From the NCBI RefSeq assembly GCF_000026545.1, contig NC_011601.1: a DNA stretch of 64,000 nt; one strand, written 5' to 3'. The stretch comes from Escherichia coli O127:H6 str. E2348/69. Lineage in GTDB: Bacteria > Pseudomonadota > Gammaproteobacteria > Enterobacterales > Enterobacteriaceae. The notes under the pieces were generated by a model. That model made no database searches. It saw only the letters and a list, made by a program, of their open reading frames with translations, and was not told where the DNA came from. The translations under genes were made by a program, and so were the position numbers. Shown here piece after piece: positions 12,521 to 15,635 of this stretch (positions are counted from its first letter, which is position 1; each line of letters starts with the position of its first letter).

Positions 12521-13570
12521 ATGACGAATATCACCTTACAGAAACAACATCGTACACTGTGGCATTTTATTCCGGGGTTAGCCCTGAGTGCAGTTATCAC
12601 CGGGGTCGCCCTGTGGGGTGGTTCCATTCCCGCGGTTGCGGGTGCCGGGTTTAGTGCCCTCACCCTCGCAATCTTGTTGGGGATGGTTTTAGGCAACACC
12701 ATTTACCCGCACATCTGGAAAAGCTGTGACGGTGGTGTGCTGTTTGCCAAGCAATATTTATTACGTCTGGGTATCATTCTTTATGGCTTCCGTCTGACGT
12801 TCTCGCAAATTGCCGATGTCGGTATCAGTGGGATCATCATTGACGTGTTGACGCTGTCCAGTACCTTCCTGCTGGCTTGCTTCCTGGGGCAGAAAGTGTT
12901 TGGTCTGGATAAGCACACCAGCTGGTTGATCGGTGCCGGTAGCAGTATCTGTGGTGCTGCCGCGGTACTGGCGACTGAGCCGGTAGTGAAAGCAGAAGCC
13001 AGTAAAGTAACCGTGGCTGTTGCAACCGTTGTTATCTTCGGGACCGTCGCGATTTTCCTCTACCCGGCGATATATCCGCTGATGTCTCAATGGTTTAGTC
13101 CGGAAACTTTCGGTATCTACATTGGTTCTACTGTGCACGAAGTGGCGCAGGTGGTGGCGGCAGGTCATGCCATCAGCCCGGATGCAGAAAACGCAGCAGT
13201 TATTTCCAAAATGCTGCGCGTGATGATGCTGGCTCCGTTCCTCATCCTGCTGGCGGCGCGTGTTAAACAGCTGTCTGGGGCGAACAGCGGCGAGAAAAGC
13301 AAAATCACTATTCCGTGGTTTGCCATCTTGTTCATCGTCGTTGCCATCTTTAACTCGTTCCACCTGTTACCGCAGAGCGTGGTGAACATGCTGGTAACGC
13401 TGGATACCTTCCTGCTGGCAATGGCGATGGCGGCGCTGGGTCTGACCACTCACGTCAGCGCGCTGAAAAAAGCCGGGGCGAAACCTCTGCTGATGGCACT
13501 GGTACTGTTTGCCTGGCTGATTGTTGGTGGTGGTGCGATTAACTATGTGATTCAAAGCGTCATCGCATAA
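12521..13570 (+). CDS. yeiH: Inner membrane protein YeiH (UPF0324 / PSE family)
   Basis: 349-aa polytopic membrane ORF divergent from yeiE; matches YeiH. Confidence 0.9.
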
Positions 13571-13584
13571 ACCACTACATCTTG

Positions 13585-13636
13585 CTCCTGTTAACCCGCT
13601 ATCATTACCGTTTTCCTCCAGCGGGTTTAACAGGAG
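13585..13636 (+). other. Imperfect inverted repeat spanning the nfo ribosome-binding site
   Basis: ctcctgttaacccgct (13585-13600) pairs with agcgggtttaacaggag (13620-13636), 16 bp stem with one bulged base and a 19-nt loop; right arm contains the AGGAG SD 8 nt before the nfo ATG. Confidence 0.45.
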
Positions 13637-13643
13637 TCCTCGC

Positions 13644-14501
13644 ATGAAATACATTGGAGCGCACGTTAGTGCTGCTGGCGGTCTGGCAAATGCCGCAATT
13701 CGCGCCGCCGAAATCGACGCAACCGCGTTTGCCTTGTTCACCAAAAACCAACGTCAGTGGCGTGCCGCACCGCTCACGACGCAAACCATCGATGAATTCA
13801 AAGCCGCCTGTGAAAAATATCACTACACATCGGCGCAAATTCTTCCCCACGACAGTTATCTGATTAACCTCGGACATCCGGTTGCTGAAGCTCTGGAAAA
13901 ATCGCGCGATGCCTTTATAGATGAAATGCAGCGTTGCGAACAGCTGGGGCTTTCTTTGCTCAACTTCCACCCTGGCAGCCATCTGATGCAGATTTCAGAA
14001 GAGGATTGCCTTGCGCGTATTGCCGAATCCATCAACATTGCGCTGGATAAAACTCAAGGTGTCACCGCGGTGATTGAAAACACCGCCGGTCAGGGCAGTA
14101 ACTTAGGGTTTAAATTCGAACATCTCGCGGCGATTATCGACGGCGTGGAAGATAAATCCCGCGTCGGCGTCTGCATTGATACCTGCCATGCTTTCGCTGC
14201 CGGGTATGATTTGCGTACTCCTGCCGAATGCGAGAAAACGTTCGCTGATTTTGCCCGTATTGTAGGCTTTAAGTATCTGCGCGGGATGCACCTCAACGAT
14301 GCGAAAAGCACCTTTGGCAGCCGCGTTGACCGTCATCATAGCCTCGGCGAAGGCAATATCGGTCATGATGCGTTCCGCTGGATCATGCAAGACGACCGTT
14401 TCGACGGCATTCCGCTGATCCTTGAAACCATCAACCCGGATATCTGGGCAGAAGAGATCGCCTGGCTGAAAGCGCAACAAACTGAAAAAGCGGTGGCCTG
14501 A
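13644..14501 (+). CDS. nfo: Endonuclease IV (AP endonuclease)
   Basis: 285-aa [42 protein letters not shown]... matches Nfo. Confidence 0.95.
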
Positions 14502-14504
14502 TCG

Positions 14505-15593
14505 ATGAACGACAGGGAAAAGCAGATTCTTAAAATTTTACGGCGTAACCCGCTGATTCAACAGAATGAAATCGCCGATATTCTGCAAATCAGCCGCTCA
14601 CGTGTTGCCGCTCATATTATGGATTTGATGCGCAAGGGTTTGATTAAAGGCAAAGGATATATCCTTACCGAGCAGGATTACTGTGTGGTTGTGGGTGCAA
14701 TCAATATGGATATTCGCGGAATGGCGGATATCCGTTACCCGCAAGCAGCCTCTCATCCAGGTTCTGTTCACTGTTCCGCAGGCGGCGTCGGACGTAATAT
14801 CGCGCATAACCTGGCTCTGCTTGGTCGGGATGTGCATTTAATTTCAGCTATTGGCAACGATTTTTACGGCGAGACATTACTGGAAGAAACGCGCCGCTCG
14901 GGCGTGAACGTTTCAAACTGCATTCGTCTGCATGGACACAGCACTGCAACTTATCTCGCTATCGCTAATAAGCAGGAAGAAACTATCCTGGCAATCAATG
15001 ACACACATATTCTGCAACAGCTAACGCCTCAACTGCTCAATACTTCACGGGACTTGATTCGCCATGCTGGTGTGGTGCTGGCTGATTGTAATCTCACACC
15101 TGAAGCCCTGGAGTGGGTCTTTACCATTGCTGATGAAATTCCGATGTTTGTCGATACCGTTTCCGAATTTAAAGCGAACAAAGTAAAAAACTGGTACAGC
15201 CGGATCCACACTCTGAAACCGACACAAAATGAACTGGAAATTTTGTGGGGGCAACCGATTAAAGACGACAACGATCGTATCAGAGCTGTAAATTCGCTGC
15301 ATCAACAAGGTGTTAAACGCATTTTTGTTTATCTGAAAGATGAATCTGTATTTTGCAGCGATAAGGATGGAGAACAATTTTTGCTGACCGCGCCAGCGCA
15401 TACGACAGTAGACAGTTTTGGTGCTGACGATGGTTTTATGGCGGGCCTGGTATATAGCTTTCTTGAAGGATACAGTTTCCGCGACAGCGCCCGTTTTGCG
15501 ATGGCCTGCGCGGCAATTTCACGCGCCAGCGGCAGCTTAAACAACCCTACCCTGTCTGCCGATAACGCGCTTTCATTAGTGCCAATGGTGTAA
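14505..15593 (+). CDS. yeiI: PfkB-family carbohydrate/nucleoside kinase with N-terminal winged-helix domain (YeiI)
   Basis: 362-aa ORF; N-terminal HTH-like segment (MNDREKQILKILRRNPLIQQNEIADILQISRSRVAAHIMDLMRKGLI) followed by a ribokinase-like core (GGVGRNIAHNLALLGR) paralogous to PsuK. Confidence 0.88.
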   Translation: MNDREKQILKILRRNPLIQQNEIADILQISRSRVAAHIMDLMRKGLIKGKGYILTEQDYCVVVGAINMDIRGMADIRYPQAASHPGSVHCSAGGVGRNIAHNLALLGRDVHLISAIGNDFYGETLLEETRRSGVNVSNCIRLHGHSTATYLAIANKQEETILAINDTHILQQLTPQLLNTSRDLIRHAGVVLADCNLTPEALEWVFTIADEIPMFVDTVSEFKANKVKNWYSRIHTLKPTQNELEILWGQPIKDDNDRIRAVNSLHQQGVKRIFVYLKDESVFCSDKDGEQFLLTAPAHTTVDSFGADDGFMAGLVYSFLEGYSFRDSARFAMACAAISRASGSLNNPTLSADNALSLVPMV

Positions 15594-15600
15594 CAATGTT

Positions 15601-15635
15601 GCCGGATTCGACGCTTGACCGCATCTTATCCGGCT
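15601..15635. repeat. REP (repetitive extragenic palindrome) element
   Basis: gccggattcgacgcttgaccgcatcttatccggct resembles the REP consensus GCCGGATGCGGCG...CTTATCCGGCC; between convergent yeiI and nupX. Confidence 0.6.

Follow-up and report, generated by a model that had tools for sequence, protein, structure and literature searches.

A hairpin without a U-tract at the yeiH-nfo boundary of Escherichia coli encloses the nfo promoter and may form the 3' end of the yeiH messenger RNA

How does a stress-induced repair gene stay independent of an unrelated gene that ends only a few dozen base pairs upstream on the same strand? The question is raised in Escherichia coli by nfo, a SoxS-induced DNA-repair gene (endonuclease IV), which lies 73 bp behind the membrane-protein gene yeiH. 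We analyzed this boundary in a stretch of 64,000 nucleotides from E. coli O127:H6 str. E2348/69 (NC_011601.1), here called the window. The element under study is an inverted repeat in the yeiH-nfo spacer. Positions are those of the window; the corresponding MG1655 position is obtained by adding 2237196, and the window is identical to MG1655 over positions 13560-13700. The identities of yeiH and nfo as E. coli genes were confirmed, and the yeiH stop codon occupies 13568-13570. The features around the repeat are as follows.

12521-13570, plus strand: yeiH coding sequence, 349 amino acids, from the list of open reading frames and the RefSeq annotation of identical E. coli DNA.
13562-13581, plus strand: soxbox/marbox-like 20-mer ATCGCATAAACCACTACATC, overlapping the yeiH stop and 18 bp upstream of the -10 hexamer.
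13585-13600, plus strand: left arm of the repeat, CTCCTGTTAACCCGCT, which includes the anti-Shine-Dalgarno segment CTCCTG and doubles as the spacer of the nfo promoter.
13600-13605, plus strand: probable -10 hexamer TATCAT, at the 5' end of the loop and 5-6 nt upstream of the transcription start.
13601-13619, plus strand: hairpin loop of 19 nt, containing the -10 hexamer, the transcription start and the pyrimidine-rich initial transcribed stretch TTTTCCTCC.
13610-13611, plus strand: nfo transcription start site (MG1655 2250806/2250807), from SMRT-Cappable-seq and a TRS study.
13620-13636, plus strand: right arm, AGCGGGTTTAACAGGAG, with one bulged T; it lies in the nfo 5' untranslated region (UTR) and contains the Shine-Dalgarno sequence (SD).
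13632-13636, plus strand: nfo SD, AGGAG; 7 nt separate it from the ATG at 13644.
13637-13647, plus strand: RNA 3' terminus that has been assigned to yeiH (RNAtag-seq and the TRS analysis); it peaks at 13639 and at 13642.
13644-14501, plus strand: nfo coding sequence, from the open reading frame list and the RefSeq annotation.

The repeat was described first by a first-pass annotation of the sequence, and its account of the arms, the 19-nt loop, the bulged T and the AGGAG in the right arm is accurate. The stem comprises 16 bp and is G+C-rich, with a CCCGC/GCGGG core. The fold check suggested in that annotation was run and yields a strong hairpin. The minimum free energy of RNA 13570-13660 is -29.1 kcal/mol, compared with -15.8 +/- 2.8 kcal/mol for 200 dinucleotide shuffles (z = -4.7); none of the 200 shuffles is as stable, and the repeat is thus beyond what is expected by chance. 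The minus strand folds about equally stably. A 76-bp segment covering the element has exactly one site per genome; of 5425 complete E. coli genomes, 5291 carry it unchanged. A dispersed repeat of the repetitive extragenic palindrome (REP), bacterial interspersed mosaic element (BIME) or miniature inverted-repeat transposable element (MITE) type is ruled out by this single occurrence in the 5425 genomes. A scan of 13000-14200 against Rfam 15 returned only a chance-level match (E = 6.9, the long non-coding RNA Sphinx_2).

The position of the nfo transcription start is decisive for the RNAs in which this hairpin can form. In the SMRT-Cappable-seq supplement a plus-strand start at 2250806 heads the operon b2159|b2160 (nfo-yeiI), which ends at 2252832 (PMC6131387). 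This start corresponds to window position 13610, a G within the hairpin loop. The neighbouring position 2250807 is listed independently as a start site within the yeiH 3' UTR (PMC10687069 supplement). With the start in the loop, the main nfo mRNA carries the right arm without the left arm, whose DNA serves as the nfo promoter's spacer. Transcripts of yeiH hold both arms, and only in these can the complete hairpin form. The first-pass annotation had proposed that a transcript starting inside the loop would escape the hairpin, and the mapped start does fall there. It had also regarded a start downstream of the left arm as evidence against its idea that the hairpin insulates nfo. The main nfo mRNA does in fact lack the full hairpin; the insulation idea is nevertheless still partly supported.

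By motif and geometry, the surroundings of the start resemble a SoxS-dependent promoter of class II with a putative soxbox. The 20-mer ATCGCATAAACCACTACATC agrees with 12 of the 13 specified positions of the mar/soxbox consensus AYNGCACNNWNNRYYAAAYN, and its centre lies at about -38.5/-39.5 from the mapped start, compared with -41.5 for micF. The A and B sites of the soxbox (GCAC ... CAAA elements) and the class II geometry, in which the soxbox overlaps the -35 region at a set distance from the -10, have been described (PMC9638938), and nfo has been reported as driven by SoxS via a marbox (PMC2989944). For comparison across species we used 80 Enterobacterales nfo loci, 68 of which have yeiH upstream; Salmonella and Klebsiella are outside this set. 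In 31 species of the Enterobacteriaceae type, which include Escherichia, Citrobacter, Enterobacter, Leclercia, Lelliottia, Pluralibacter, Kosakonia, Pseudocitrobacter, Shimwellia and Cedecea, the T, A, T and final T of the -10 hexamer are invariant, and the 18-bp gap between the soxbox-like site and the -10 is preserved in nearly all of them. The putative soxbox overlaps the last yeiH codons and the stop (GCA TAA), which places these bases under constraint from the yeiH C-terminus as well as from nfo regulation. Different genera share the motif, ...GGCATAA... included. A consensus promoter scan missed this promoter, nfo is not listed in the Salmonella SoxS/MarA supplement, and the Cappable-seq tables of 2016 have no entry for the locus.

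Next we considered where transcription of yeiH ends. The SMRT-Cappable-seq supplement lists yeiH (b2158) as a unit of its own with a start at 2249699 (PMC6131387), and no b2158|b2159 (yeiH-nfo) unit occurs among the full-length transcription units of the same study. The TRS analysis draws on two RNAtag-seq data sets; the 3' terminus spans 2250833-2250843 in one, where 2250835 is dominant, and 2250834-2250842 in the other, where 2250838 is dominant (PMC10687069). The terminus is classed there as 'Primary'; the 3' UTR measures 73 nt, and the longest U-tract is 2 nt (PMC10687069). It lies 1-11 nt past the stem; the peaks fall 3 and 6 nt after the last stem base, just 5' of the nfo ATG. The first-pass annotation had set aside a terminator-like role for the hairpin on account of the missing T-tract. 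The T-tract is missing, since the next 8 nt (TCCTCGCA) have 2 T, but the dismissal does not hold: the steady-state 3' terminus assigned to yeiH maps directly past the stem. This terminus, together with the lack of a yeiH-nfo unit, suggests that the element is first of all a 3'-end structure of yeiH. Occlusion of the SD would concern only RNA that extends past the hairpin.

Ends of this kind are known. Dar and Sorek (2018) described Rho-terminated transcripts with precise steady-state ends directly past stable stem-loops without U-tracts (PMC6061677). The stem-loops guard against PNPase and RNase II, and Rho-utilisation (rut) sites lie immediately downstream (PMC6061677). Both marks of this class, a stem that is not followed by a U-rich stretch and a precise steady-state 3' end, are found at yeiH, where the hairpin is also stable and the end lies immediately downstream. 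The yeiH hairpin differs from the class in that its loop is unusually long, because it houses the -10 and the start site of the next gene, and in that its 3' arm is the SD of that gene; the parts of Rho and of the exonucleases would here be the same by analogy. One further feature is compatible with such a part, albeit weakly.

13680-13900, plus strand: C-rich, G-poor stretch in the early nfo coding sequence, a candidate Rho-utilisation region.

The C/G ratio is 1.4-2.0 in 78-nt windows across this stretch, which could serve as a rut site for untranslated read-through RNA.

On balance we favour, if only moderately, the reading that the element is a U-less 3'-end hairpin of the yeiH mRNA that surrounds the nfo promoter and prevents translation of nfo from read-through RNA. 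According to this model the full stem-loop would form only in RNA arriving from yeiH, as the 3'-end structure of its mRNA, and would shield this RNA from 3'-5' exonucleases in the same way as at the steady-state ends of Rho-terminated transcripts. The SoxS-type nfo promoter would be nested in the DNA of the hairpin, with the soxbox-like site at the yeiH stop, the left arm as spacer and the -10 and start in the loop. The nfo-yeiI mRNA would begin with the right arm only, leaving its SD usable, while in yeiH RNA that passes the hairpin the SD would be locked in the stem and nfo would stay untranslated. Such ribosome-free read-through RNA would be exposed to Rho, and trimming back would leave the 3' end just past the stem. 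In this way nfo would be insulated from yeiH transcription at two levels. We infer that burial of the SD, insulation and exposure to Rho are coupled.

The predicted accessibility of the initiation region fits this model. In the nfo transcript that starts at the mapped site, the AGGAG is predicted to be unpaired with a mean probability of 0.64 and to cost 2.7 kcal/mol to open; in RNA that carries yeiH sequence the predicted values are 0.001-0.004 and 10.4-11.4 kcal/mol. Opening the whole 30S footprint is predicted to require 11.4 kcal/mol in the nfo transcript versus 22-26 kcal/mol in read-through RNA. By prediction, then, the translation initiation region is base-paired in transcripts initiated upstream. 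The burial of the SD in read-through RNA that the first-pass annotation had put forward is borne out by these folds. Its broader claim, that nfo is insulated from upstream transcription, fares less evenly: the start in the loop and the predicted occlusion of the SD speak for it, but it wrongly dismissed the 3'-end role, and the effect on translation would follow from the fold.

The same differential is predicted in relatives. In 26 of the 31 species, opening the initiation region (-13 to +3) is predicted to cost at least 3 kcal/mol more in read-through RNA than in RNA equivalent to that from the start site, with a median difference of 7.9 kcal/mol. This holds also for Citrobacter and Kluyvera, where AGGAG is deleted and the inner stem adjoins the ATG.

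The first bases of the nfo mRNA (13611-13619) are pyrimidine-rich, UUUUCCUCC in E. coli and UUUCCCCC in many relatives, and this initial transcribed stretch contains an anti-SD-like CCUCC. The nfo leader may itself tune nfo translation, since even in the primary transcript the SD is predicted to be no more than 64% free.

The first-pass annotation had suggested a check of conservation, and the repeat is kept: both arms are recognisable around an invariant TATNNT in all 31 species. The loop varies in sequence and in length, from 9 to about 50 nt, with the arms retained. Matched changes in the two arms occur in several lineages, namely TGTCAAACCCGC/GCGGGTTTGACA in Shimwellia (perfect, without the bulge), GACCCGC/GCGGGTC in Kosakonia, TGTAGAC/GTTTTACA in Enterobacter sp. 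Bisph1 and CCCGG/CCGGG in Enterobacter sp. ENT03. When the arms alone are aligned, 84.8% of the cells are paired, compared with 34-55% in slid registers. Double-sided changes are found at five pairs, a level that was matched by 1 of 500 shuffles. The arms of a species also fit each other better than arms swapped between species; none of 10,000 permutations, which were not corrected for phylogeny, did equally well.

Some species depart from the common arrangement. In Citrobacter spp. and Kluyvera (four loci) the ACAGGAG segment is lost from the 25 nt upstream of nfo, which leaves this gene without an evident Shine-Dalgarno sequence (GGCGGGTTTAATTTATG); the -10, TATACT, lies within an extended 14-bp stem with a 9-nt loop. 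In Enterobacter sp. Ag1 and Cedecea neteri the inner stem is shifted to take in the -10 (CCCGCTATC/GATAGCGGG). Here a 16-nt insert separates the inner stem from the SD, and CTCCTG/CAGGAG are still complementary as a separate outer helix. Several more distant species, of Serratia, Rouxiella, Tatumella, Edwardsiella and Morganella (six loci), have a different nfo promoter, with CATAAT as the -10, and likewise a CCTG-type segment 5' of the -10 that is complementary to the SD, for example TCCTGTGTGTATC...GATAACACAGGAG in Serratia oryzae. The enrichment of anti-SD pairing over shuffles in distant Enterobacterales is weak (9 of 49 loci at p < 0.05).

The distant species also provide a clue to the origin of the hairpin. 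Our scan defined a canonical terminator by a 3-8-nt loop plus a T-run. Between yeiH and nfo it found none in the 31 Enterobacteriaceae-type species, where the spacer has a median length of 75 nt; among 36 more distant Enterobacterales, where the median is 104 nt, 10 have such a terminator upstream of a separate nfo promoter. The terminators of Serratia, Yersinia and Providencia occupy the same position as the E. coli hairpin, just past yeiH, and so does that of Edwardsiella, which in addition has the same stem sequence. The Edwardsiella terminator has the sequence CACCCTGTTAACC-loop-GGTTAGCAGGGTG and then a T-run (E. ictaluri and E. hoshinae; about 2410-2450 in locus L064 and about 2395-2435 in locus L075). 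Its stem, CCCTGTTAACC...GGTTAGCAGGG, corresponds to CTCCTGTTAACCC...GGGTTAACAGGAG in the hairpin of E. coli and E. cloacae. Apart from this, the 8-mer CTGTTAAC is rare in the compared loci, with 14 occurrences in 457 kb, both orientations counted. In these four genera the terminators combine loops of 3-8 nt with T-runs and precede a separate nfo promoter, whereas the E. coli hairpin has a 19-nt loop with the -10 and the start, and no U-tract. A run of 4-6 T after the stem occurs in 6 of the 31 species, e.g. AGGAGTTTTTTATG, but not in E. coli. Enterobacter cloacae has a perfect stem of 13 bp and a U-run. The spacer of Pectobacterium zantedeschiae retains CCTGTTAAC with no obvious hairpin.

Judged from these sequences, the E. 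coli hairpin probably derives from a terminator of yeiH, the loop of which came to contain the nfo -10 and start, because the yeiH terminator of Edwardsiella shares the stem sequence. A more elaborate scenario, which we offer only tentatively, is that an ancestral intrinsic yeiH terminator, of which Edwardsiella still has the canonical form, was remodelled in the Enterobacteriaceae into a 'promoter-in-terminator'. The loop would have been enlarged to hold the -10 and the start, and the 3' arm and former U-tract would have been recruited as SD and spacer. One hairpin would then end or protect the yeiH mRNA, block nfo translation on read-through RNA and, since that RNA would stay free of ribosomes, hand it to Rho.

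Several observations weigh against the favoured reading. The RNAs that end at 13637-13647 would, on this reading, begin at the yeiH promoter, but in principle they could be short transcripts initiated by nfo's own promoter, or their ends could be left by endonuclease cleavage near the AUG. The density of read starts in the 73-nt 'UTR' is about 4-fold that of the yeiH coding sequence, and therefore nfo-initiated RNA contributes reads in this region. The Term-seq tables of Adams 2021 have no yeiH or nfo entry. The C-rich stretch starts about 45 nt past the stem and not immediately after it. The segment of the left arm that resembles a promoter spacer is unusually conserved across genera, and this conservation could partly reflect promoter function. 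Formal covariation in the compared sequences is modest. The inner helix AACCCG/CGGGTT is almost invariant and thus uninformative; RNAalifold recovered only 6 inner pairs from the arms-only alignment and no structure from the full MAFFT alignment, the latter because the loop is gappy. The outer helix, which contains the SD, is absent or shifted in about a third of the species. The start sites that enter the folds of other species were assumed by analogy with E. coli. Finally, the pattern of wobble pairs does not identify the strand on which the structure acts, with 11 non-terminal G-U pairs on the plus strand versus 12 on the minus strand. An apparent asymmetry of 35 versus 19 had been considered as strand evidence and was rejected, as the excess is due to terminal pairs alone.

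The first alternative is the proposal of the first-pass annotation itself, a pure translational insulator: transcription would read through from yeiH into nfo, and the hairpin would do nothing except hide the SD. It draws on the strong predicted occlusion in long RNA only, which is kept in most relatives, on the start in the loop and on the precedent of phage T4 genes e and I-TevI. But an RNA terminus directly past the stem is not expected from it, full-length sequencing reported no joint yeiH-nfo unit, the best-conserved part of the repeat is the inner helix, which is without the SD, and the stem recurs in Edwardsiella as part of a canonical terminator. We regard a purely translational role as unlikely.

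These last points, the mapped end 1-11 nt past the stem and the canonical homolog in Edwardsiella, would suit a second explanation, namely that the hairpin is a non-canonical intrinsic terminator of yeiH that itself releases RNA polymerase within a few nucleotides, with burial of the SD as an incidental effect. The T-runs in 6 of the relatives point in the same direction; the other 25 species have none. Efficient intrinsic termination by E. coli RNA polymerase requires a U-tract, and E. coli offers 2 T in the next 8 nt and a 19-nt loop. A plus-strand consensus scan of the locus calls no terminator. A classical intrinsic terminator in E. coli is ruled out by the missing U-tract and the long loop, and release by a non-canonical one seems to us rather improbable.

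Descent from a terminator is equally compatible with a functionless relic, in which the left arm is kept as promoter spacer and the right arm as ribosome-binding region, and their complementarity is left over from the old terminator. It agrees with this view that conservation consists mainly of invariance and that covariation is modest. Promoter spacers normally vary, however, and here a spacer and its complement are kept across genera; the arms fit each other better than shuffled partners, matched changes occurred in several lineages such as Shimwellia and Kosakonia, and an RNA end maps at the stem. A relic without function is consequently a poor explanation of the locus.

The weakest alternative is a DNA-level element that controls the promoter, either a cruciform or the binding site of a dimeric regulator, flanking the nfo -10 and start; the arms do bracket both, the wobble pairs show no strand asymmetry and the minus-strand fold is equally stable, yet it is very improbable, for an arm distance of 9 to about 50 nt, register shifts and bulges are incompatible with the fixed half-site spacing of a dimer (which rules out a dimeric operator palindrome), compensatory changes in both arms are unexpected for a protein site, and an RNA end maps at the stem base. 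Regulators of nfo besides SoxS, MarA and Rob are not known.

Returning to the U-less 3'-end hairpin that we favour, its closest counterpart on the translational side is found in phage T4, where genes e (lysozyme) and I-TevI have a late promoter inside an SD-sequestering hairpin (PMC3014915). As is predicted for nfo, long upstream transcripts bury the initiation region, and an internal promoter, placed in the DNA for the 5' part of the structure, gives translatable RNA that lacks the 5' arm. The two cases differ in that nfo is a chromosomal stress gene with a sigma-70/SoxS-type promoter and not a T4 late promoter, and in that its hairpin also coincides with the 3' end of an upstream mRNA; the translational effect at nfo is predicted. 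Translation of the IS10 and IS50 transposases is subject to 'fold-back inhibition' on externally initiated transcripts, as reportedly described by Davis, Simons and Kleckner in 1985. Here RNA from outside likewise contains a stretch that can pair with the ribosome-binding site, and transcription from the promoter of the element itself begins past this stretch. They differ from yeiH-nfo as mobile elements differ from a core gene pair, and no 3'-end function is known for IS10 or IS50.

The far end of the nfo transcript lies beyond a second gene.

14505-15593, plus strand: yeiI, co-transcribed with nfo.

The gap between nfo and yeiI is only 3 nt (14501-14505), and their joint transcription unit is 'novel' when compared with the annotated reference operons. 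At 15601-15634, 8 nt past the yeiI stop, there is a REP-like hairpin, GCCGGATTCGACGCTTGACCGCATCTTATCCGGC. The 3' end of the nfo-yeiI operon (2252832, window 15636) falls directly after it, again at a hairpin without a U-tract.

What the arrangement would achieve is to keep two tightly packed genes independent, which is tidy and not unprecedented. Operon predictors that join yeiH and nfo by their short spacer are probably wrong, and nfo reporters that contain the left arm would be expected to behave differently depending on where transcription starts. If confirmed, the hairpin would be a chromosomal counterpart of the T4 'promoter inside an SD-sequestering hairpin', and an example of a possible coupling of U-less 3' hairpins, translation blockage and Rho at compact gene boundaries. 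If the remodelled-terminator scenario is true, it would be a conserved and mechanistically coupled gene-boundary insulator for a stress gene. A single hairpin around a downstream promoter would then illustrate how packed genes may stay independent where there is no space for a separate terminator.

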